Shown: in pieces, positions 13,414 through 36,115 of the stretch
How the letters are laid out: each line of letters opens with the position of its first letter
Numbering within the stretch: position 1 is the first letter of the stretch
DNA from: Bacillota bacterium
GTDB taxonomy: Bacteria; Bacillota; Sulfobacillia; SLMV01
Assembly: GCA_046483165.1 (NCBI GenBank)
Contig: JAWODQ010000096.1
Coordinates: forward strand, 7,667 to 71,666
Length of the DNA: 64,000 nt
Direction of reading: 5' to 3'
Made by a program: the position numbers and the translations under genes
The notes under the pieces: generated by a model
What the model saw: only the letters and a program-made list of their open reading frames with translations
Databases searched by the model: none
Told to the model about the DNA's origin: nothing

Positions 13414-14277
13414 TCAATCCCGCCGGATGCGGAAAGCATCTTGCAGGTGCTCCCGAGTGGTCGGGTCAAAATCTCGAAATGCCGGCGCCCCCTCTCCATC
13501 GTACCCCAGGGTGTCTTCGAAGGTTCGGTGTTCCGATCTGTAGAATATGCCGATCGGTATTTCCTCGCCCCAAACTTCCGCGAGTCTCCTGGCCTCCTCC
13601 AGGTCCGAGATATCGTGACTCTCGTCGATCTTTCTCACGCGCTCCCGATACCAGGCAAAGGTGTTGTGGCGGTTGAAAGTTACGCAGGGCTGCAGTATGT
13701 CCAACAGAGCATAACCGCGGTAGGTAATCGCCGCCTTCATTAATTCCTTCAGGTGGTCGGGATCTCCGCTGAATCCTCGGGCCACGAATCCGGCACCGGC
13801 CGCCAGCGCGATATATAGGGGGTTCAGCGGCGAGCTCTTCACTCCATCCGTTTGCACGGGGGTCTGCATGCCCGGATCGCTGGTGGGACTCGCCTGGCCT
13901 TTGGTCAGGCCGTAAATCTGGTTATTGTGCACGAAATGGGCCAGGTTGGGGTTTCTCCGAACGTTGTGCAGGAAATGATTCCCACCCTCCCCGTAGGTGT
14001 CTCCGTCGCCCGATTCCACTATACAGACCAGGTTGGGATTGGCTACCCGTGAGCCCAATGCTACGGGAAGAGCGCGGCCGTGAAGACCGTTGAATCCATT
14101 TACCCGAACGTAATGGGGAGTTTTCGCCGCCTGCCCGATGCCGGAACATATCAACACTTCGTGGGGCTCCAGTTCGAGTTCCGCGAGGGTCTCTTCGAGT
14201 GTTTTTAGGATGGCGAAATTGCCGCATCCGGGGCACCAGGCCGGGGTGTCCACTCCCTTCGTGAAAGGGTTAGACAT
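13414..14277 (-). CDS. korB: 2-oxoacid:ferredoxin oxidoreductase beta subunit (TPP-binding)
   Basis: 287 aa: AWCPGCGNF...GIGQAA...GDGDTYGEGGNHF matches the TPP-binding fold of KorB/OorB. It overlaps the korA stop by 8 nt. Confidence 0.85.
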   Translation of the reverse strand: MSNPFTKGVDTPAWCPGCGNFAILKTLEETLAELELEPHEVLICSGIGQAAKTPHYVRVNGFNGLHGRALPVALGSRVANPNLVCIVESGDGDTYGEGGNHFLHNVRRNPNLAHFVHNNQIYGLTKGQASPTSDPGMQTPVQTDGVKSSPLNPLYIALAAGAGFVARGFSGDPDHLKELMKAAITYRGYALLDILQPCVTFNRHNTFAWYRERVRKIDESHDISDLEEARRLAEVWGEEIPIGIFYRSEHRTFEDTLGYDGEGAPAFRDFDPTTREHLQDAFRIRRD

Positions 14278-15949
14278 ATTGTGCTACCTCCTCTTGGATA
14301 TCTTGCGGTGTGAACGGTCTTCCATCGTAGCGCAAGATGCTGTGGTCGAATTGCAGTCCAGTCTCACGGCGCACCAAATCGGCCAGCTGAGCGGTGTAAT
14401 TTGCTTCGACGCATATGCTCATAGATGCTCTTTGGACCATCTCTTCGAGTCTTTGGGTCGGTAAGGGCCATAGGTCGGTGAAATGTAGATGACCGACGGA
14501 CGAATCCTGTCCTTCGAGCCGCTGGCGCGCCTCGCGTAGCGCTCCGTAGGTAGAACCCCATCCGATCAGCAATAGATCCGGATCGTCGGGACCGATATAC
14601 GTGGGTTCGTCCATCGCCTCGGCCAGCCGTGCCGATTTGGACATGCGCTTTCGCATCATGGCCCGTCGCGTCGAGGCATCTTCGACGATGAATCCCCGTT
14701 CGTCGTGTTCGTCGGAATCTACCAGGACGACCTCGCCGGGGAATTGACCGGGTATCGCCCGGGGAGAGATCCCGTCTTCGGCCAGGCGATACCGGGCGTA
14801 GGGTTTCTCCAACTCGCGGGCGAGATATCTGTCGTGGGAGAGTTTTCCGAAATCGAACGGGGGAATAGTTCGAGCGGTGTCGGCGAAGTTTTGATCCGAT
14901 AGGAATATGACCGGAATCTGAAATTGGTCCGCCAGGGCGAAAGCCTTGTTGAGCCGGTAGAAGGCGTCCTCGAGGTGGGTGGCCGAGGTTACGACGCGGG
15001 GAAATTCTCCGTGTCCCGCATCGATCACGAAGGAGAGATCTCCCTGGTCGGTGCGAGTGGGAAAACCGGTCGCCGGCCCGGGGCGCATAGCCAAAACGAT
15101 CACCGCCGGCGTTTCCGTCATTCCCGCGAGAGATAATCCTTCCACCATGAGAGAAAAGCCTCCGCCGGAGGTCGCCGTCATGGCTCGTATACCGGCGTAG
15201 GAGGCGCCGAGCACCGAATTGATCGCCGCGATCTCATCCTCGGGCTGCTCCACTACTACCTCCGAGTCGCGCAGTGAAGCAAGGTAAGTCATGATTCCCG
15301 TGGCCGGGGTCATGGGATACGCGGAGTAGAAACGACAGCCACTGGCAGCGGCCGACATGCCCAGAGTTTGATTCCCGTCGAGAAAGATGGGGGATTGCTC
15401 TTCGGGGTCGGGTGGATCTATGGCAAGGGGAGTCCACTGCACACTCTCATATCCGGAAAGTAGGGCCTCGACGTTTTGTTCTCCCACCCTATCCTTGTGC
15501 GAGAAAGTCTCCAACAGTATGTTCTCAGCCCTTCGGGTGGACAGTCCGAGCAGGGCCAGGGCGGCACCCAGTGCCACCGTGTTGGCCATGATGCGTCCCC
15601 CGGCATCGCGCGCCAGCCGGTCGATGGACACCGCAACTCCCCTGTCGTCATCCGATTTGAAGTGCTTTGGATCGTAGACGAACACACCATCTTCATCCAG
15701 TTCATCCAGGTGTCGTGAGTAAGTTTCCTCATCGAGACAAAGGAGGAGGTTACAGCGATTTTCGAAGGCCCAGGGGGTGTGGGCGGCGGCGCGCAATATG
15801 GAGAAGTTGTGACCGCCCCTCACCCGCGACATGTAGTCTTTGGTGGAAAGGACTCCATATCCCTCGGCGGCGAGGATATGGCCGAGGGATGCCGCCAGCG
15901 TGTCCATTCCCTGGCCGGCCGCCCCTCCTATCATTATGTGTATATCCAT
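14270..15949 (-). CDS. korA: 2-oxoacid:ferredoxin oxidoreductase alpha subunit (fused gamma-alpha type)
   Basis: N-terminal gamma-like domain (MIGGAAGQGMDTLAASLG) fused to the pyruvate-flavodoxin/ferredoxin oxidoreductase alpha core. Start at MDIHIMIGG with SD GAAGGGATGG. Confidence 0.85.
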   Translation of the reverse strand: MDIHIMIGGAAGQGMDTLAASLGHILAAEGYGVLSTKDYMSRVRGGHNFSILRAAAHTPWAFENRCNLLLCLDEETYSRHLDELDEDGVFVYDPKHFKSDDDRGVAVSIDRLARDAGGRIMANTVALGAALALLGLSTRRAENILLETFSHKDRVGEQNVEALLSGYESVQWTPLAIDPPDPEEQSPIFLDGNQTLGMSAAASGCRFYSAYPMTPATGIMTYLASLRDSEVVVEQPEDEIAAINSVLGASYAGIRAMTATSGGGFSLMVEGLSLAGMTETPAVIVLAMRPGPATGFPTRTDQGDLSFVIDAGHGEFPRVVTSATHLEDAFYRLNKAFALADQFQIPVIFLSDQNFADTARTIPPFDFGKLSHDRYLARELEKPYARYRLAEDGISPRAIPGQFPGEVVLVDSDEHDERGFIVEDASTRRAMMRKRMSKSARLAEAMDEPTYIGPDDPDLLLIGWGSTYGALREARQRLEGQDSSVGHLHFTDLWPLPTQRLEEMVQRASMSICVEANYTAQLADLVRRETGLQFDHSILRYDGRPFTPQDIQEEVAQYV

Positions 15950-16091
15950 TTTGATCCATCCCTTCAAGTGCACAAGATATACGCATTTTTACCACGCAAA
16001 CCGGGTTGCTCAAACCGAAGGTCCGGGGAGGGGATTGATGGGGTCGAAGCGAAGCGCGAGTTAATGCATTGCGGGAGGGTTGGTCGTCATT

Positions 16092-27173: not shown

Positions 27174-27215
27174 ATGTGAATTGCGTCACTAATTAGATTG
27201 TGATATGGTTCACAT
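27174..27215. promoter_or_regulatory. Two tandem Rex-like operator sites (candidate redox-responsive repressor sites)
   Basis: Site 1 is ATGTGAAttgcGTCACTA (27174..27191). Site 2 is TTGTGATatggTTCACAT (27198..27215), matching 16/18 of TTGTGAAnnnnTTCACAA. They lie ~100 nt upstream of the ECF-S gene, which precedes the hydrogenase operon. Confidence 0.4.
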
Positions 27216-27316
27216 GGATTGGGAGAGCCGACGCAACGCCGCCGAAAGGGGCGTGCCGGACTCTCCGAGTAATGGAAGCACGATGCATTTTCTTGATTCG
27301 AGAGGGTGACGGTATT

Positions 27317-27820
27317 ATGAGTGTCGATTCGAGCAGCAATGCCTCGTCCACAACGCGATGGATCACCCGTACCGCCCTGCTGTTGGCGCTGACTCTGGCA
27401 TTTCAGATGATCGGGCTGCCGCAACCGGTGACCGGACCGGCCGTAAACGCGATGTTGATCCTCAGTGCGCTAGTCGTCGGACCCGTGTCCGGAGTCATAA
27501 TCGGAAGCCTCACTCCGGTAATTGCCTTCCAGCGCGGCATCCTGGCGGCTCCGCTGGGCCCGATGATTCCCTTTATTGCCCTGGCTAACGCGGTATTGGT
27601 GCTGCTTTTCGCCCTGGTGCGGAAGCGTCAACCGGTACTGGCGGTGGTGGTAGCGGCCGTAGCGAAATTTGCCGTTTTGGCCACGGCAGTTCGCGTGTTC
27701 GTCGCGGTGCCTCCGCCCATCGCCGTGGCGATGGGAACTCCGCAACTATTGACCGCACTGATCGGTGGAGGCGTGGCACTTATTGCATATCGAGCCATAG
27801 GTCGCATACTGAAGGACTGA
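27317..27820 (+). CDS. ECF transporter substrate-specific (S) component, ThiW/QueT-like small membrane protein
   Basis: 167 aa with 5-6 TM. SD GAGAGGGTGA upstream. No A/T components are adjacent, so it is a solitary S component. Substrate not assignable. Confidence 0.6.
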   Translation: MSVDSSSNASSTTRWITRTALLLALTLAFQMIGLPQPVTGPAVNAMLILSALVVGPVSGVIIGSLTPVIAFQRGILAAPLGPMIPFIALANAVLVLLFALVRKRQPVLAVVVAAVAKFAVLATAVRVFVAVPPPIAVAMGTPQLLTALIGGGVALIAYRAIGRILKD

Positions 27821-27893: not shown

Positions 27894-28427
27894 ATGAATA
27901 GTTTCGATGTCTGTCGCTGTACGGAAGTACCCACGCGGCACCTGTCACCGCCCTCGGTCGTTACCTCGGGTGAACGAGGGCAGTTTGACCCGGCGGATCC
28001 GGGGGGGCTGATTCCTCTGATGCAGGCCACTCAGGAGGAGTTCGGATATCTGCCGCGGTCAGAAGTTGCCCGCATCGCGGATTATCTGGGATTGTCCGAA
28101 GCTCGAGTGTACGGCGTGGCGACTTTTTACAACCAATTTCGTCTCGAACCCCTGGGCAAGAATTACGTTCAGATTTGTACCGGGACCGCCTGTCACGTGA
28201 AGGGGGCGGCCGAGATACACTCGGTACTGCGGGCCGAACTCGGCCTGGAGGGTGAGAGTACCACGACCCGAGATGGGCTCTTCACTTTGGATACGGTCGC
28301 CTGCCTGGGTGCCTGCAGTATGGCTCCCCTGGTGAATGTCAACGACGAGTTTCACGGACACATGACACCGCAAAAAGCCCTCAAATTGATTCGCGGCCTT
28401 CGGTCGAAGGAGCGTGAAGCGCGATGA
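27894..28427 (+). CDS. hydC: [FeFe]-hydrogenase complex NuoE-like [2Fe-2S] subunit (HydC/HndA type)
   Basis: Thioredoxin-like 2Fe-2S fold (CTGTACHVKGA...CLGACSMAP). The ATGA overlap with the next gene suggests coupling. Confidence 0.8.
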   Translation: MNSFDVCRCTEVPTRHLSPPSVVTSGERGQFDPADPGGLIPLMQATQEEFGYLPRSEVARIADYLGLSEARVYGVATFYNQFRLEPLGKNYVQICTGTACHVKGAAEIHSVLRAELGLEGESTTTRDGLFTLDTVACLGACSMAPLVNVNDEFHGHMTPQKALKLIRGLRSKEREAR

Positions 28428-30274
28428 ATCGAGAAGATAGCGGCTACACCACAATCATCGTCGGTACCGGTACCTGCGGATTGGCCGCGGGAGCCCGCCA
28501 GATCTACGATTACTTCGCGGAACGGATCGCGGAATCGGGCTCGGAAGATCTCGTCCTCAAAAAGACCGGTTGTCTCGGCTATTGCACCATGGAACCCATG
28601 GTAGACGTCGAGTTGCCGAAATGGCCCCGGGTGTCCTTCGGTCCGGTAACACCGGAGAACGTCGAGTTTCTTTGGGACATGATTGCCAGTGGGGGCGCCG
28701 TGCCGAAGGACTTCATTTTGGGCACGCACTCTCCGGCGGACGGCATTCATGAACTTCACGATGTCCCGCTGCTTTGGGACACGCCCTTCTTTCGTCGGCA
28801 AAAGAGGCTGGTCTTGCGCAACTCGGGCATCATAGATCCGGAATCCCTCGAGGAATACGTGGGGGTCGGAGGGTACGAGGGTCTACGATCTGCTCTAAAG
28901 ATGTCTCCCAAAGAAGTGATCGAGGAGGTCAGGCGAGCCGGGCTGCGCGGCCGCGGCGGAGCCGGTTTCCCCACCGGGTTGAAATGGCAATTCGCTCACG
29001 AAGCGGAAGGTGATGAGAAATTTATCATCTGCAACGCGGACGAAGGCGACCCCGGAGCATTTATGGATCGCTCCATACTGGAAGGTGACCCGCACGCGGT
29101 CATAGAGGGTTTGGTCATCGCCGCCTACGCCATCGGAGCCTCGGAGGGGTACGTATACTGCCGCGCCGAGTATCCCCTCGCCATCGCGCGTCTTACGGGC
29201 GCGATATCGCAGGCCAAAAGTGCCGGCTATCTCGGAGACGACATCGGCGGCAAGGGATTTTCTTTCAATCTTAAGATTAAAAAGGGTGCCGGGGCTTTCG
29301 TCTGCGGTGAAGAGACTGCGCTGATCGCCTCCATTGAGGGAAGACGAGGTATGCCCCGTCCCCGTCCACCCTACCCGGCGCAATCGGGCCTTTGGGGTAA
29401 GCCGACCAACATCAACAACGTCGAGACTATCGCGAACGTCCCGCTGATTTTGGGCGGGGGAGCCGAAGCATTTCGTAACTACGGGACGGAGAACAGTCCC
29501 GGCACCAAGGTATTCGCTCTCGCGGGGAAGGTTAAGCGAAGCGGCCTGGTCGAGGCTCCCATGGGCATGCCCCTGCGGGATATCATTTTCGATATCGGTG
29601 GTGGTGTGGCGGATGACAGGGAGTTCAAGGCCGTCCAGATAGGTGGGCCTTCCGGGGGATGCCTGCCCGAGGAGCTTTTGGATACCCCGGTTGACTACGA
29701 CTCACTGGTCGAAGTCGGAGCCATGATGGGATCCGGCGGTATGGTGGTCATGGATGAAGATACCTGCATGGTCGACGTGGCTCGTTTCTTCCTGAACTTC
29801 ACCGCCTCCGAATCCTGTGGCAAGTGCCTACCCTGCCGCGAGGGCGTGGCGCGTTTGCGGGAAACCCTAAACGGTATCGTGAGAGCTCACCGCGACGAAT
29901 CCCCCGAGGAGAGCCTGCTACGCTTCCAGGGGGTCACGATGATGGAAGAACTCGCGGAAGTCATTCAGGGGACCGCAGCGTGCGGATTAGGCCAGACGGC
30001 TCCGAATCCGGTCTTGAGTACCCTCAAGTATTTCCGCGACGAGTACGATGCCCACGTGTTCGAAAGGCGCTGTCCCGCCGGCGTATGCTCTGCGCTGTTG
30101 GAGTACTACATCGATCCCGACGTTTGTACGGGCTGCGGCCTGTGCGTGCGCAAGTGTCCCGACGACGCCATAATCGGTGAGAAACGCCACCCGCACTACA
30201 TCGCGGCGGACAAATGCATAAGTTGCGGTACCTGCCGCCAGTTCTGCCCCTTCGGTGCCATCAAGGTAAGGTAG
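28424..30274 (+). CDS. hydB: [FeFe]-hydrogenase complex NuoF-like flavoprotein subunit (HydB/HndC type; FMN + NAD(H) binding, Fe-S)
   Basis: N-terminal [2Fe-2S] thioredoxin-like domain (GTGTCGLAAGA). NuoF core (GRGGAGFPTGLKW, ...ESCGKCLPCREG). Two C-terminal ferredoxin-like Cys clusters (CTGCGLCVRKCP, CISCGTCRQFCP). Confidence 0.85.
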   Translation: MNREDSGYTTIIVGTGTCGLAAGARQIYDYFAERIAESGSEDLVLKKTGCLGYCTMEPMVDVELPKWPRVSFGPVTPENVEFLWDMIASGGAVPKDFILGTHSPADGIHELHDVPLLWDTPFFRRQKRLVLRNSGIIDPESLEEYVGVGGYEGLRSALKMSPKEVIEEVRRAGLRGRGGAGFPTGLKWQFAHEAEGDEKFIICNADEGDPGAFMDRSILEGDPHAVIEGLVIAAYAIGASEGYVYCRAEYPLAIARLTGAISQAKSAGYLGDDIGGKGFSFNLKIKKGAGAFVCGEETALIASIEGRRGMPRPRPPYPAQSGLWGKPTNINNVETIANVPLILGGGAEAFRNYGTENSPGTKVFALAGKVKRSGLVEAPMGMPLRDIIFDIGGGVADDREFKAVQIGGPSGGCLPEELLDTPVDYDSLVEVGAMMGSGGMVVMDEDTCMVDVARFFLNFTASESCGKCLPCREGVARLRETLNGIVRAHRDESPEESLLRFQGVTMMEELAEVIQGTAACGLGQTAPNPVLSTLKYFRDEYDAHVFERRCPAGVCSALLEYYIDPDVCTGCGLCVRKCPDDAIIGEKRHPHYIAADKCISCGTCRQFCPFGAIKVR

Positions 30275-30287
30275 GAGGAGAGGCCAA

Positions 30288-32042
30288 ATGTCAAAAATAA
30301 GGATGACCATAAACGAGAGACCCGTCGAGGTCGAATCCGGTGCCACGATCCTGGAGGCGGCCCGGCGCGCTCGAGTAAACATCCCCACTCTGTGTCATAT
30401 CGACGGATTGGAGCCCACGGGTTCGTGCCGAATCTGTTCGGTGGAGGTCGAAGGGCGGGCTAACCTGGTACCCTCCTGTGCCGAGCCGGCCTCGGATGGA
30501 ATGTCGGTTCGTACCAACAGCCCACGGGTCCTGACGGCCCGGCGCCATATGATTCAGTTGCTCCTGGCCAATCATCCCGACGATTGTTTGTACTGCGCGC
30601 GGGGTGGAGAATGCGACCTCCAGGACCTCGCCCAGAATGTGGGCATCAGGGAACGCGCCTGGCGACGCGGGAGACACCGGAGTCATCCCGTCGACCGCAG
30701 CAGCCCGAGCGTGGTTCGAGACCCGGAAAAATGCATTCTCTGCGGTAAGTGCGTGCGAGTGTGCGACGAAATTCAGGGTGTGGCTGCCATCGATCACGCC
30801 GGACGGGGTTTTGATAGTTTTGTCCTTCCCGCCTTCGATGACGAGCTGGCGTCTACGATTTGCGTAAACTGCGGACAGTGCGTCGCCATATGCCCCACCG
30901 GTGCCCTGGTGGAAAGAAACGACCTGGCCCGAGTCCGCCACTTCCTATCCGATGAGTCGCTGGTTACCGTGGTGCAGACGGCTCCGGCAGTCCGAGCGGC
31001 ACTGGCGTGGGAGTACGGTCTATCGGGTCGGGAGGCCGAAGCGAAGATGGTGACAGCGCTGCGGGATATGGGATTCTCCTACGTATTCGATACCCAATAC
31101 AGTGCCGACCTCACCATAATGGAGGAGGGTACGGAACTTCTGGATCGCATTCGAGAAGGTGGCCCTCTGCCGCTGATAACTTCCTGTTCGCCCGGATGGA
31201 TCAAGTTCGCAGAGCACTTCTATCCCGAACACCTGGACAATTTGTCCACGTGTAAGTCACCGCAGCAGATGCTCGGTGCCATGGTCAAGAATTACTGGGC
31301 GGAAAAGCAGGGGATCTCGCCGAAAGACATACGCGTGGTGTCGGTGATGCCCTGCACCGCCAAGAAGTTCGAGGCGGAGCGCCCCGAAATGGAAACGGTG
31401 GGCGGACGAGACGTCGACGCGGTGATAACCACCCGGGAACTGATATCCGCCTTCGCAGAGATGGGTCTGGATTTCGACGACGTGGAGGAGGGCCAATTCG
31501 ACGGCTTCCTCGGCGCCTCTTCCGGCGCCGGCGCGATATTCGGCACCACCGGTGGAGTGGCCGAGGCGGCATTGCGGACCGTCTATAATCTCCTGGTGGG
31601 GGAGAATCCGGGAGCAGATGATTTCTCCGCAGTACGAGGACCCGACGGCATAAAGGAGATAGAGATCTCCCTGCCGGAGGGAGGTTCCGTAAGAGGCGCC
31701 GTGGTACACGGGTTGCGTAACGCTCGCCGGGTCATGGACGCCATTTCTTCGGGCCAGGCGAACTACGCCTTCGTGGAGATAATGGCCTGCCCCGGCGGCT
31801 GTGTCGGTGGTGGCGGACAACCTTACGGCAACGACCGCGAGCGCACCGCGAAACTGGCGGCAGAATTGTACGAAATTGACGAGACGAGGACGATTCGCTT
31901 CTCGCACGAGAACCCGGATGTAATTCGGGCCTATCGAGAATACCTCGAGGCTCCGGGGGGGCCGGAGAGTCACCGGTTGTTACACACCACTTACCGCCCC
32001 CGGTCCCGGTATCGGGCGGAGGACGACGACCTGCTTGGCTAG
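30288..32042 (+). CDS. hydA: [FeFe] hydrogenase catalytic subunit (M3-type, HydA/HndD-like)
   Basis: N-terminal 2Fe-2S. His-ligated 4Fe-4S. Two ferredoxin-like 4Fe-4S clusters. H-cluster motifs L2 MPCTAKKFE and L3 EIMACPGGCVGGGG. The L1 motif reads TSCSPGW, with Ser where the second Cys of TSCCPxW is expected. Confidence 0.9.
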   Translation: MSKIRMTINERPVEVESGATILEAARRARVNIPTLCHIDGLEPTGSCRICSVEVEGRANLVPSCAEPASDGMSVRTNSPRVLTARRHMIQLLLANHPDDCLYCARGGECDLQDLAQNVGIRERAWRRGRHRSHPVDRSSPSVVRDPEKCILCGKCVRVCDEIQGVAAIDHAGRGFDSFVLPAFDDELASTICVNCGQCVAICPTGALVERNDLARVRHFLSDESLVTVVQTAPAVRAALAWEYGLSGREAEAKMVTALRDMGFSYVFDTQYSADLTIMEEGTELLDRIREGGPLPLITSCSPGWIKFAEHFYPEHLDNLSTCKSPQQMLGAMVKNYWAEKQGISPKDIRVVSVMPCTAKKFEAERPEMETVGGRDVDAVITTRELISAFAEMGLDFDDVEEGQFDGFLGASSGAGAIFGTTGGVAEAALRTVYNLLVGENPGADDFSAVRGPDGIKEIEISLPEGGSVRGAVVHGLRNARRVMDAISSGQANYAFVEIMACPGGCVGGGGQPYGNDRERTAKLAAELYEIDETRTIRFSHENPDVIRAYREYLEAPGGPESHRLLHTTYRPRSRYRAEDDDLLG

Positions 32043-32063: not shown

Positions 32064-34139
32064 ATGAGTGTAGTTTTCACGCTGCCCGACAAATGTCGGC
32101 GTTGTTACTACTGCGTGCGGGAATGTCCCGTTAAGGCGATACGCGTCATCGGGGGACAGGCGGAGGTCGTGGAAGATCTCTGCATCTCCTGCGGGACATG
32201 CCTGCGAGTTTGCCATCAAAAGGCCAAAACCTACCGCGACGATGTGCCGCGATTGGAAAAGATGCTGGCCGAAGATCAGCCCATAGTCGCCATCCTGGCT
32301 CCCTCCTTCGTGGCTTCTTTTACCGACGTAAAGCCGGGCCAGGTGGTGGAAGCCACCTCGCAACTGGGCTTCGATGCCGTAGTGGAGGTGGCCTTCGGAG
32401 CCGAACTGGTGGCCGATGCCTACTCGAGTTTCGTGGACGATTTCGAAAGCGGCGCCGAGGTTGCCGGCAAAGCCCCCTACATCTCCACACCCTGCCCTGC
32501 GGTGGTGAATTTCGTGGAGAAGCACCATCCGGAGCTCATGCCACATATGGTGCCGATCGTGTCGCCGATGGTCGCCCTTTCGCGTTATCTGAAGGCTCGA
32601 GCGCGCGAGAAGGGAGAACCGGTGCCCTCCATAGCCTTCTTCGGACCGTGCACTGCGAAGAAGGCGGAGACGGACTGGGGTTTGCCCGAGGATGACGATC
32701 CGGAAATCGCCTTGACCTTCCGGGAACTCGCGGCGATGTTTTCCGATCGAGATATCGACGTGGCGAAGCTTCCGAGCCGGGAATTCGACCCCCCCCACCC
32801 GACCCTGGCCCGCCTGTTTCCGGTCTCCGGTGGGCTCATCAGATCGGCCGCCCTCGCCGCCGATATATTGGATTCCTCTATCTTGGTCGCCGAGGGCAAA
32901 GAAGACGTCGAAGACGTGATATCCTCGGTGGCCAATGGCCGCGTGGACTACCACTTCGTGGATTTGCTCTTTTGTGAGGGTTGTATAGATGGGCCAGTCA
33001 TAGATTCCGATCTTTCCCTCATGGAACGAAGGGAAAGGGTGGTCAAATACACGCGCGAGGCGAGAAAACTACGCGAGTCGGAACCGCGAGAACTACCCCG
33101 GGGACTGGACCTCTCTCGGCGTTTCCGCCCGAGAGACGTATCCCTGCCCCTACCCGACGAGTCGGAAATCCGTCGGATCCTGTCGCGAGTCGGCAAGCAC
33201 GACCCCTCGGACGAACTTAACTGTGGCGCCTGCGGGTATCCTACCTGCCGGGACAAGGCCATCGCCGTTTACCGAGGCCTGGCGGAGCCGGAGATGTGCC
33301 TTCCCTACATGGTGGAACAGCTGGAAGAAGCGCTGGAGGAGCTGGAGTACTCGTATGGGGAACTGCACAGCACCTACGACAAGCTTCAGGAAACCCAGGA
33401 AGAATTGGTCCAGGCGGAAAAACTATCTTCGCTCGGACAGCTTTCGGCGGGGGTGGCGCACGAGCTGAACAATCCCCTGGGCGGGATATTGCTCTACGCG
33501 GATTTGATACGCGAAGAACAGGCGCCCGGTGAGGTGGAAGACTACGTGAAGACCATCCGACGTGAGGCGGCGCGATGCCGCGACATAGTGACGGGACTTC
33601 TGAATTTCGCCCGGCAATCGCGAGTTCAAAAGGAAGAAGTGGCCCTGAACGAATACGTCGCCAGCGTCAGTGAGGATTTCGCACGCGGTCTACCCGAGGA
33701 TATTAAGCTTAGGCTCAATCTCGATTCCTCCGACCAACTGAGGGCTGAGCTCGATCCCGGGCAGATGCGCCGCGTCTTGATAAACCTGTTGGGCAACTCC
33801 CGAGATGCCGTCGGCGACGCCGGGGAGATCACGATCTCTACCCGATACCTGGAGGGCGAAGACGAGATATTGATAGCCGTAGAGGACGACGGGGTTGGCA
33901 TCCGCGAATCCGACATGTCTCGAGTGTTCACCCCATTCTTCACCACGAAGGAACCGGGTAAAGGCACCGGATTGGGGATGCCCATCGCCTACGGAATCGT
34001 GAAAATGCACCGGGGGAAGATCGAGGTTAACTCCGAAGAGGGTCGGGGGACGGAAGTAACCATATCGATACCCCGTCGCTCGGCCCCGGATACGACCCCC
34101 GAACTTCTGGGGGTAGATCGCGAAAGACCTTTTACTTAA
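32064..34139 (+). CDS. Sensory-type [FeFe]-hydrogenase domain (HydS-like) fused to a histidine kinase
   Basis: N-terminal 2x[4Fe-4S] ferredoxin Cys motifs. H-domain with STPCPAV, GPCTAKKAE and FCEGCIDG (all four H-cluster Cys present). Cx2Cx4Cx16C motif (CGACGYPTC...C). Coiled coil. HisKA (GVAHELNNPLGG) and HATPase_c (GTGLGMPIAYGIV). Confidence 0.8.
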   Translation: MSVVFTLPDKCRRCYYCVRECPVKAIRVIGGQAEVVEDLCISCGTCLRVCHQKAKTYRDDVPRLEKMLAEDQPIVAILAPSFVASFTDVKPGQVVEATSQLGFDAVVEVAFGAELVADAYSSFVDDFESGAEVAGKAPYISTPCPAVVNFVEKHHPELMPHMVPIVSPMVALSRYLKARAREKGEPVPSIAFFGPCTAKKAETDWGLPEDDDPEIALTFRELAAMFSDRDIDVAKLPSREFDPPHPTLARLFPVSGGLIRSAALAADILDSSILVAEGKEDVEDVISSVANGRVDYHFVDLLFCEGCIDGPVIDSDLSLMERRERVVKYTREARKLRESEPRELPRGLDLSRRFRPRDVSLPLPDESEIRRILSRVGKHDPSDELNCGACGYPTCRDKAIAVYRGLAEPEMCLPYMVEQLEEALEELEYSYGELHSTYDKLQETQEELVQAEKLSSLGQLSAGVAHELNNPLGGILLYADLIREEQAPGEVEDYVKTIRREAARCRDIVTGLLNFARQSRVQKEEVALNEYVASVSEDFARGLPEDIKLRLNLDSSDQLRAELDPGQMRRVLINLLGNSRDAVGDAGEITISTRYLEGEDEILIAVEDDGVGIRESDMSRVFTPFFTTKEPGKGTGLGMPIAYGIVKMHRGKIEVNSEEGRGTEVTISIPRRSAPDTTPELLGVDRERPFT

Positions 34140-34205: not shown

Positions 34206-34598
34206 ATGGCCCGCATATTGATGGTAGATGACGACGCCGATTTTTTGGATTATGCCTCCCGGGTGCTACGACGCGGCGAGCACACGGTATCTACGGCCCA
34301 CAATGGCGTGGAGGCTCTGGAGATACTGAAGAGTGACTGCGAGTTCGACCTGGCCATTTTGGATCTTATGATGGAAAAGAGCGATGAAGGTTTCACTCTC
34401 GCTCACCGGGTTCGTGAGTTTTTGGGAGAAGACGGCCATATCATGATACTTACCGGGGTTCGCCGCACCCACGATTTGGGATTCGATCTGCACTCGGCCA
34501 GCGGTAGCAAGTGGATCGACGCCGACGATTTCGTCGAGAAGCCCATTTCCTCGGAAGATCTACTCGAACGAGTCCGCCGATTGGTCGGGGAGCAGTGA
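34206..34598 (+). CDS. Single-domain response regulator (receiver only)
   Basis: 130 aa CheY-like: MVDDDADF...LDLMME...KPI, with no output domain. SD GGAGGTGGGA upstream. Confidence 0.8.
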   Translation: MARILMVDDDADFLDYASRVLRRGEHTVSTAHNGVEALEILKSDCEFDLAILDLMMEKSDEGFTLAHRVREFLGEDGHIMILTGVRRTHDLGFDLHSASGSKWIDADDFVEKPISSEDLLERVRRLVGEQ

Positions 34599-36115
34599 TG
34601 GCGGACGAGGCTTTGAGCCCCGAGGAGACTCGGGATGTGCTCTCTTTCGAGGAAACCCCGGCGGTCATCGTAATGGATGATGAGGAGTCCATCAGGCTCG
34701 GCTGCGAGAAAGTCCTGAATCGCGAAGGATTCGAGGTAACTGTAGCCCCCGACGGAGAAACCGGTTGGGATCTCCTGCGAGATGGAGACTTCGATCTGGC
34801 ATTGATAGACCTGAAAATGCCGGGAATCGACGGCATGGGGATACTGAGCCTCATTAACGAAAACCTTCCCGACGTCGTCCCGATAGTCATAACCGGTTAC
34901 GCTTCGTACGAGACCGCCGTCGAGACGGTCAAGTTGGGAGCGTATGATTACATCCCGAAACCTTTCACACCGGATGAGCTGCGCAATGTGGTGCGACGCG
35001 GACTCGAGCGACGCTTTCTGCGCCTGGCAAATCGTCGCCTGCGCGAGGAACGGCGGCGTTTCCTCCTGGATCTCACCGAGGAACGCAGTCGCCTGATGAC
35101 GATACTCCGAGCGATGTCTGACGGCGTACTCGTGGTTAACCGGCGCGGGGAACTGGTCTTGACGAACCCGGTGGGCCGGCGTTTGCTGACCGACGATTTC
35201 GACGCATCCTCCGAGAAACCACCTTCGCTTGGGCGAGTGTTGAAGTACCCGGACATAGCCGATCTGGTGGCGCGAGTGGAGTCCGATCCCGAGCTCGAGG
35301 GCTGCGATGCGGAGGTGGATACTTCTGACGATCGCGTCTTCCACTCCACCGCCACGGCCGTCCGCGACGACGATGGTACCTATCTTGGTGCCGTCATAGT
35401 ATCGCGAGATGTGACCGAGCGGCGAGAGATCGAGAAGATGAAGAGCGCCTTCGTCCGGATGGTCTCTCACGAGCTAAAATCACCCCTGGCCGCGGTCCAG
35501 GGTTACCTCGAGCTCCTTATCGACGGCGACGTATCCGAAGAGGATCGCGATCATATGCTGCGGCGCTGCCGGACGAGACTGGAAGCATTGCAGGAGATGA
35601 TCGGGGATCTTCTGGATCTGTCCCGGATCGAAAGCGGGGCCTCGGGGCGTGAACTGCGGAAGCAGGGTGTCGGCGAGGTATTGGAGGATATCGTCGAGTT
35701 GCAGCGAGATCTCGCCGCCGCGCGGGAGATAGACATTCAGCTGGAGGTCGGCGGCAGGCCGGAAATCGTGGCGGATCGGCGGGAACTGGAGGAGATATTC
35801 ACAAACCTGGTTTCCAACGCGGTGAAATACAACCGGGATGGCGGCTCCGTCTCGGTAGAAGTTGAGGATTCGGGCGACCGGCTCGTGGCAACGGTTTCCG
35901 ATACCGGTATAGGGATGGATTCGGGATCTCTGGACCATGTGTTCGACGAATTCTACAGGGTCCGCAGTGCCCAAACTGCAAAAATAGCGGGAACTGGCCT
36001 TGGCCTGGCCATCGTCAAGCGTCTCGTGGAAGCCTATGATGGAGATATCGGGGTGGAGAGCTCGCCGGGAGAGGGGACGACTTTCCGGGTGGAGCTGCCC
36101 AAAAACCCCACGTAA
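34598..36115 (+). CDS. Hybrid sensor histidine kinase (N-terminal receiver + PAS + HisKA + HATPase_c)
   Basis: Start ATG overlaps the previous stop (TGATG). REC (VMDDEESI...DLALIDLKMPGIDG). PAS-like region. HisKA (VSHELKSPLAAV). HATPase (GTGLGLAIVKRLVEAYDGDIGVES). Confidence 0.8.
   Translation: MADEALSPEETRDVLSFEETPAVIVMDDEESIRLGCEKVLNREGFEVTVAPDGETGWDLLRDGDFDLALIDLKMPGIDGMGILSLINENLPDVVPIVITGYASYETAVETVKLGAYDYIPKPFTPDELRNVVRRGLERRFLRLANRRLREERRRFLLDLTEERSRLMTILRAMSDGVLVVNRRGELVLTNPVGRRLLTDDFDASSEKPPSLGRVLKYPDIADLVARVESDPELEGCDAEVDTSDDRVFHSTATAVRDDDGTYLGAVIVSRDVTERREIEKMKSAFVRMVSHELKSPLAAVQGYLELLIDGDVSEEDRDHMLRRCRTRLEALQEMIGDLLDLSRIESGASGRELRKQGVGEVLEDIVELQRDLAAAREIDIQLEVGGRPEIVADRRELEEIFTNLVSNAVKYNRDGGSVSVEVEDSGDRLVATVSDTGIGMDSGSLDHVFDEFYRVRSAQTAKIAGTGLGLAIVKRLVEAYDGDIGVESSPGEGTTFRVELPKNPT

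Follow-up and report, generated by a model that had tools for sequence, protein, structure and literature searches.

The locus encodes a HydABC-type [FeFe]-hydrogenase

We examined a 64,000-nucleotide stretch of contig JAWODQ010000096.1 (GenBank assembly GCA_046483165.1; hereafter the window), focusing on hydA, the gene for the putative catalytic subunit of a bifurcating [FeFe]-hydrogenase, and on the L1 motif of its product, which carries serine in place of one of the two cysteines. The genes hydC and hydB lie directly 5' of hydA on the same strand, an arrangement kept in syntenic loci of related genomes, and the start of hydB overlaps the stop of hydC by 4 bases. The genes and the motifs of HydA, the latter read directly from the sequence and, for L1, from the alignment with CpI as well, are:

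27894–28427 (+): hydC, NuoE-like thioredoxin-type [2Fe-2S] subunit, 177 residues (Pfam PF01257, E = 2e-46; NCBIfam NuoE-family matches)
28424–30274 (+): hydB, NuoF-like subunit binding flavin mononucleotide and NAD(H), with two C-terminal [4Fe-4S] motifs, 616 residues (Pfam Complex1_51K, NADH_4Fe-4S and two Fer4)
30288–32042 (+): hydA, catalytic [FeFe]-hydrogenase subunit, 584 residues, with an M3-type F-domain, an H-domain and a small-subunit-like C-terminus
31179–31199 (+): L1 motif TSCSPGW, within the open reading frame 30288–32042
31251–31253 (+): codon TGT of Cys322 (in LSTCKSPQQ), which aligns with CpI Ala321 and is not a demonstrated ligand
31347–31373 (+): L2 motif VMPCTAKKFE, with Met354, ligand Cys356 and Lys359
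31776–31817 (+): L3 motif EIMACPGGCVGGGG, with Met499, ligand Cys501 and bridging Cys505

HydA matches the Pfam families Fe_hyd_lg_C (PF02906, E = 6e-92) and Fe_hyd_SSU (PF02256, E = 1e-18), and its N-terminal part matches Fer2_4 ([2Fe-2S]), NADH-G_4Fe-4S_3 (the NuoG-type, His-ligated [4Fe-4S]) and Fer4_Nqo3 (two [4Fe-4S]). The protein scores 798.5 bits against NCBIfam NF040763, 'NADH-dependent [FeFe] hydrogenase, group A6' (curated cutoff 765), and 487.8 bits against TIGR02512, which describes group A (cutoff 405.95). Its AlphaFold model has a mean predicted local distance difference test score of 91.5 and superimposes in Foldseek with template modeling (TM) scores of 0.93 on 8a6t_A and 0.92 on 7q4w_A. 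The nearest solved structures are the HydA1 subunits of bifurcating HydABC complexes from Thermoanaerobacter kivui (8a6t), Acetobacterium woodii (7q4v) and Thermotoga maritima (7p5h); T. kivui 8a6t_A is the best overall match in both sequence (E = 1.6e-179) and fold. From these matches we identify the product of 30288–32042 as the HydA of a HydABC-type hydrogenase, bifurcating or confurcating (HydDB group A3; NCBIfam 'group A6'). The coupling of its H2 oxidation or formation to ferredoxin and NAD(P)+ we infer solely from its resemblance to the complexes of A. woodii and T. kivui.

The window codons at 31179–31199 are ACT TCC TGT TCG CCC GGA TGG, encoding T298 S299 C300 S301 P302 G303 W304, with the proton-relay Cys300 at 31185–31187 and the TCG codon of Ser301 at 31188–31190. 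The alignment with CpI is ungapped across the L1 region (window residue number equals CpI number plus 1), and it pairs Ser301 with CpI Cys300 and Cys300 with CpI Cys299. CpI Cys300 is an established ligand of the [4Fe-4S] subcluster of the H-cluster ([4Fe-4S]H). This role agrees with the assignments of Katsyv et al. (2023) and Kertess et al. (2017). The window protein departs from the textbook L1 motif TSCCPxW, which has both cysteines, in that it keeps the proton-relay Cys and has Ser for the ligand Cys.

The rest of the catalytic machinery is conventional. The translation of 30288–32042 contains PLPLITSCSPGWIKFAEHFYPEHLDNLSTCKSPQQ, VMPCTAKKFE and EIMACPGGCVGGGGQP, the latter two matching the MPCxxKxxE pattern of L2 and the ExMxCxxGCxxGGGQP pattern of L3 and supplying three Cys ligands, one of them the bridging Cys. 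Window Cys356 and Lys359 align with CpI Cys355 and Lys358. Cys356, Lys359 and Glu362 of L2, and Met499, Cys501 and Cys505 of L3, are invariant in our alignment A1. The CpI proton pathway (C299, E279, S319, E282 and R286) is present in full as Cys300, Glu280, Ser320, Glu283 and Arg287, positions that are invariant or nearly so in the same alignment.

An earlier reading of the window, made from its letters alone (the sequence-only reading), had described much of this: TSCSPGW at 31179–31199 with a TCG serine codon, Ser at the CpI [4Fe-4S]H ligand position beside the proton-transfer Cys, canonical L2 and L3 motifs, and a Cys in LSTCKSPQQ where CpI has Ala. All of these observations hold; the downstream Cys is Cys322, aligned with CpI Ala321 and 21 residues after Ser301. 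Its view of the protein as an otherwise standard bifurcating hydrogenase is in line with the hydCBA operon, the NF040763 score above cutoff and the TM scores of 0.92–0.93 to HydABC HydA1 subunits.

Ser301 is genuine and widespread

The sequence-only reading had allowed for a GC-to-CG inversion in sequencing or assembly, by which a true TGC (Cys) codon would appear as TCG; the two codons differ merely by a swap of two adjacent bases. However, the independent assembly GCA_964637305.1 (locus L001, encoding the 99%-identical protein P0001) has the same gene order and 99.0% nucleotide identity to the window, and it carries the same TCG. The next five syntenic relatives (L002 to L006, at 82, 72, 71, 64 and 60% nucleotide identity) encode Ser with TCG, TCT, TCG, TCA and TCA, respectively. 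The comparison with close relatives that had been proposed as a check thus shows Ser to be conserved, and the TGC or TGT codon that had been named as contrary evidence was looked for in L001–L006 and found in none of the six. A wider sample of 79 loci from species-representative genomes, spanning many phyla (Clostridia, Planctomycetota, Acidobacteriota, Bacteroidales, Myxococcota and others), has Ser in 68 and Cys in 11, and all six Ser codons are used among the 68 (TCG 33, TCT 11, TCC 8, AGT 7, TCA 5, AGC 4). The 120 closest proteins, which come from NCBI, JGI, ENA and Logan assemblies, have Ser in all cases except one. The agreement of independent assemblies, and the synonymous Ser codons of relatives near and distant, rule out a sequencing error, to which we attach practically no probability. 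No exact match to the window HydA sequence is on record, the closest being the 99%-identical protein.

Those 120 homologues range in identity from 99% down to about 52%, and their L1 motifs are TSCSP(G/A)W in 112, SSCSPxW in 5, TSCSAGW in 2 and TSCCPGW in 1 (P0036). The two TSCSAGW proteins (P0010 and P0014, 56% and 55% identical to the window HydA) are of the Ser type and lack the otherwise invariant L1 Pro.

For a more diverse sample we clustered at 50% identity and took the 150 representatives that matched an H-domain-only query best, 136 of which could be scored. Ser occurs in 20 of these 136 group-A representatives (15%), which agrees with the published figure of about 20% of putative [FeFe]-hydrogenases (Kertess et al., 2017; PMC5855289). 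Because Ser is found in some 15–20% of the family, including the active A. woodii enzyme, TSCSPGW does not exclude membership in group A. The description of Ser301 as a rare natural variant therefore needs dividing: it is natural, and its rarity is ruled out by the counts among the closest homologues (119/120), the diverse representatives (20/136) and the genome loci (68/79). The accompanying premise that TSCCPxW is the sole canonical L1 motif does not survive the 15–20% of group-A-like sequences that have Ser. The Ser variant is in fact already known from published work and is typical of a large Ser-type clade of bifurcating hydrogenases. That active [FeFe]-hydrogenases do not all bear the TSCCPxW signature is a useful correction that carries little weight as a discovery. 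Annotation that treats TSCSPxW as defective, as was implied for the Melainabacteria copies (Di Rienzi et al., 2013), will give wrong labels to a clade of bifurcating hydrogenases that is both large and widespread ecologically. The motif is not mentioned in PMC9431212.

On a rough neighbor-joining tree of the 136 representatives, Fitch parsimony required 15 Ser/Cys changes, compared with about 20 when the tips were shuffled. The tree is nearly star-like at 40–50% identity, resolved too poorly to be depended upon, and gives weak evidence that the site may have switched more than once.

The representative library, outside the window, also contained a protein of 4,122 residues (P0121) with seven tandem HydA H-domains at a spacing of 444 residues and an L1 sequence of FTSCCASW; it looks like a polyprotein.

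Comparison with characterized hydrogenases

The HydA1 subunit of A. woodii (7Q4V, 7Q4W, 8A5E) has the same domain architecture as the window protein and nearly the same length (583 and 584 residues). It shares ITSCSPGWIKF with Ser at residue 301, the downstream Cys (SS/TCKSPQ), L2 and L3, and its complex, like that encoded in the window, has HydB and HydC partners (Foldseek TM 0.92). The two proteins are 47% identical; A. woodii is an acetogen, whereas the window derives from a group of GC-rich uncultured Clostridia metagenome-assembled genomes (MAGs), and, unlike in A. woodii, a HydS-histidine kinase gene and genes for response regulators come after the window operon. In the A. woodii complex, which is active, solved by cryo-electron microscopy (cryo-EM) and normal in the infrared signature of its H-cluster, Ser301 is described as the [4Fe-4S]H ligand, and no functional difference has been reported for this Ser-type enzyme (Katsyv et al., 2023; PMC10021017).

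T. kivui HydA1 (8A6T, 8BEW) and T. maritima HydA (7P5H) are likewise catalytic subunits of bifurcating HydABC complexes, but their ligand is the Cys of the canonical TSCCP(S/A)W, and the downstream position holds Ala or Val. CpI (4XDC, 1FEH) resembles the window protein in its M3 architecture, proton pathway, L2 and L3 (TM about 0.91), but it is monomeric and ferredoxin-dependent, has TSCCPGW with the Cys300 ligand and Ala321, and is 37% identical.

The engineered C115S variant of CrHydA1 provides the other point of reference. In our check of the numbering against the expressed protein, C115 is the second Cys of TSCCP (T112 S113 C114 C115); the variant has the identical Cys-to-Ser exchange at the identical ligand position, and the downstream Cys is present. 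Its outcome was called surprising, given Ser in about 20% of natural sequences, and limited structural flexibility at the buried position was suggested as the cause (Kertess et al., 2017; PMC5855289). The natural Ser-type enzymes, by contrast, are conserved and, in A. woodii, active.

Ser301 as a probable ligand of the H-cluster

The sequence, conservation, synteny, and family and fold assignments established here point to a naturally occurring Ser-type HydABC catalytic subunit of an uncultured Clostridia lineage, and we hold it very probable that the window HydA is just this. Ser301 would be the first ligand of the [4Fe-4S] subcluster of the H-cluster, presumably through its serinate oxygen, a ligand role that we take from Katsyv et al. 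(2023). Cys356, Cys501 and the bridging Cys505 would provide the remaining three. The site of Ser301 is a Cys in CpI, CrHydA1, T. kivui HydA1 and T. maritima HydA. The second-sphere residues Met354, Lys359 and Met499 are intact, as is the proton relay through Cys300, Glu280, Ser320, Glu283 and Arg287. A normal H-cluster and activity would therefore be expected, as has been shown for A. woodii HydABC, in which the segment ITSCSPGWIKF...SSCKSP is identical, and the window enzyme probably behaves like the A. woodii one. Both the ligation by Ser and the activity are taken from the literature on A. woodii.

Several observations weigh against this assignment. By its authors' own account, the cryo-EM map from which the Ser-O-Fe bond of the A. 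woodii enzyme derives is moderately resolved (Katsyv et al., 2023; PMC10021017). CrHydA1 C115S lost most of its [4Fe-4S], took up no [2Fe] and produced less than 1 µmol H2 per min per mg (Kertess et al., 2017; PMC5855289), a result showing that Ser is not tolerated in every scaffold. The window HydA and its close relatives are at most 47–48% identical to solved enzymes. Finally, the 64-kb window contains none of the maturase genes hydE, hydF and hydG. Such genes usually lie apart from the hydrogenase genes, and in this genome they must be located outside the window.

The loss of an L1 ligand could instead mark HydA as a degenerate paralogue, inactive or purely regulatory. Such a reading draws on CrHydA1, in which the loss abolishes cluster binding (PMC5855289), and on the treatment of the TSCSPGW copies in confurcating hydrogenases of Melainabacteria as departures from the functional motif (Di Rienzi et al., 2013; PMC3787301). 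It is, however, hard to reconcile with the invariance of all other catalytic and proton-pathway residues, with a complete hydCBA operon and with strong purifying selection for Ser specifically at this site. The highly active bifurcating hydrogenase of A. woodii has the identical motif, and a true sensory paralogue, which adjoins hydA, differs clearly from it in having STPCP and no proton relay. We regard a degenerate HydA as exceedingly unlikely.

A different alternative, raised as speculation by the sequence-only reading, keeps the enzyme active and exchanges the ligand: Cys322, in LSTCKSP, would supply the fourth thiolate to [4Fe-4S]H in place of Ser301. Cys322 is present in 116 of the 117 close Ser-type homologues matched by pattern. 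Among the diverse representatives it is present in 16 of 20 Ser-type and 65 of 116 (56%) Cys-type sequences, a weak enrichment (odds ratio 3.1; Fisher p = 0.05, uncorrected for phylogeny), and CrHydA1 C115S is a case in which Ser by itself serves poorly as a ligand (Kertess et al., 2017; PMC5855289). Against this, four of the 20 diverse Ser-type representatives, and P0027, retain TSCSP with Ala at position 322. Many TSCCP enzymes, too, carry the equivalent Cys, among them T. kivui HydA2 of the hydrogen-dependent CO2 reductase (TSCCPAW...STCKSP) and CrHydA1 (TSCCPGW...SSCKSP; VSSCKSPQ), and the four known ligands of these enzymes exclude it. Because CrHydA1 C115S is inactive though it carries this Cys, the downstream Cys alone does not rescue Ser. 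The description of the A. woodii structure names Ser301 as the ligand (Katsyv et al., 2023; PMC10021017). Position 322 is also not one of the positions that best tell Ser-type and Cys-type sequences apart; our scan of the H-domain found no position that separates the two cleanly, the best being residue 229 with a total-variation distance of 0.60. Compensation by Cys322 is thus rejected on the Ser-type enzymes with Ala, the TSCCP enzymes with Cys and the inactive CrHydA1 variant, and we rate its chance as very small.

With Ser301 retained as the probable ligand, its ligation might be an adaptive feature of the clade as opposed to a neutral alternative. This is allowed by the presence of Ser in 119 of 120 close homologues with six codons in use, four of them one mutation from a Cys codon. 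The scan gave no single co-varying second site, and no functional difference has been reported. We consider an adaptive role possible but doubtful. Ser could, for instance, tune the potential of [4Fe-4S]H in NADH-linked bifurcating hydrogenases, or their catalytic bias or robustness. The tolerance of Ser might also depend on structural context, which would explain the collapse of CrHydA1 C115S: the same Cys-to-Ser exchange that is tolerated, and apparently selected, in natural HydABC enzymes is destructive to the CrHydA1 cluster.

Genomic context

Downstream of hydA lie a second [FeFe]-hydrogenase gene and two regulatory genes:

32064–34139 (+): hydS-like sensory [FeFe]-hydrogenase fused to a histidine kinase, 691 residues (Pfam Fer4; Fe_hyd_lg_C, E = 2e-47; FeS, PF04060; HisKA; HATPase_c)
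34206–34598 (+): stand-alone response-regulator receiver, 130 residues (Pfam Response_reg, E = 5e-15), kept in L002–L004 and L006
34511–36115 (+): hybrid receiver-PAS-histidine kinase (Pfam Response_reg, PAS_4, HisKA, HATPase_c), with equivalents in L002–L004 and L006

The true start of the hybrid kinase is probably near 34600, since the listed GTG start overlaps the preceding gene. The order hydCBA, HydS-histidine kinase, response regulator is kept in five loci of related MAGs; hydC holds its position in L001 and L003–L006, and the hydS-like gene lies 3' of hydA in L001–L004 and L006.

In the STPCP L1 motif of the HydS-like protein the proton-relay Cys is replaced by Pro and the ligand Cys is kept, and the L3 residue equivalent to Met497 is Leu. 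The PF04060 FeS domain is C-terminal, and no PAS domain was detected between the hydrogenase part and HisKA/HATPase_c. The protein looks like a histidine-kinase-linked H2 sensor of the group C type that would control the bifurcating hydrogenase, and it is a probable H2-responsive regulator of the operon. Sensory [FeFe]-hydrogenases encoded beside bifurcating group A enzymes are a published pattern (PMC8163306), which the window arrangement fits.

About 12 kb upstream of the hydrogenase operon, at 13414–15973 (−), are genes for the fused alpha/gamma and the beta subunits of a 2-oxoacid:ferredoxin oxidoreductase, an enzyme that could plausibly supply reduced ferredoxin when H2 is made by confurcation. 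Directly 5' of hydC, at 27200–27820 (+), is a gene for a small membrane protein resembling the S-component of energy-coupling factor transporters, which is kept in L001 and L003–L006. Elsewhere the window carries genes ordinary for a Bacillota-type chromosome (recD2, sbcCD, comEC, holA, hrcA-grpE-dnaK-dnaJ, prmA, ddl, floA, phoH, era, recO and glyQS), and the nearest species-level genomes are the uncultured Clostridia MAGs CSSed165cm_110R1 and B1Sed10_200 (80% and 78% amino-acid identity, respectively).

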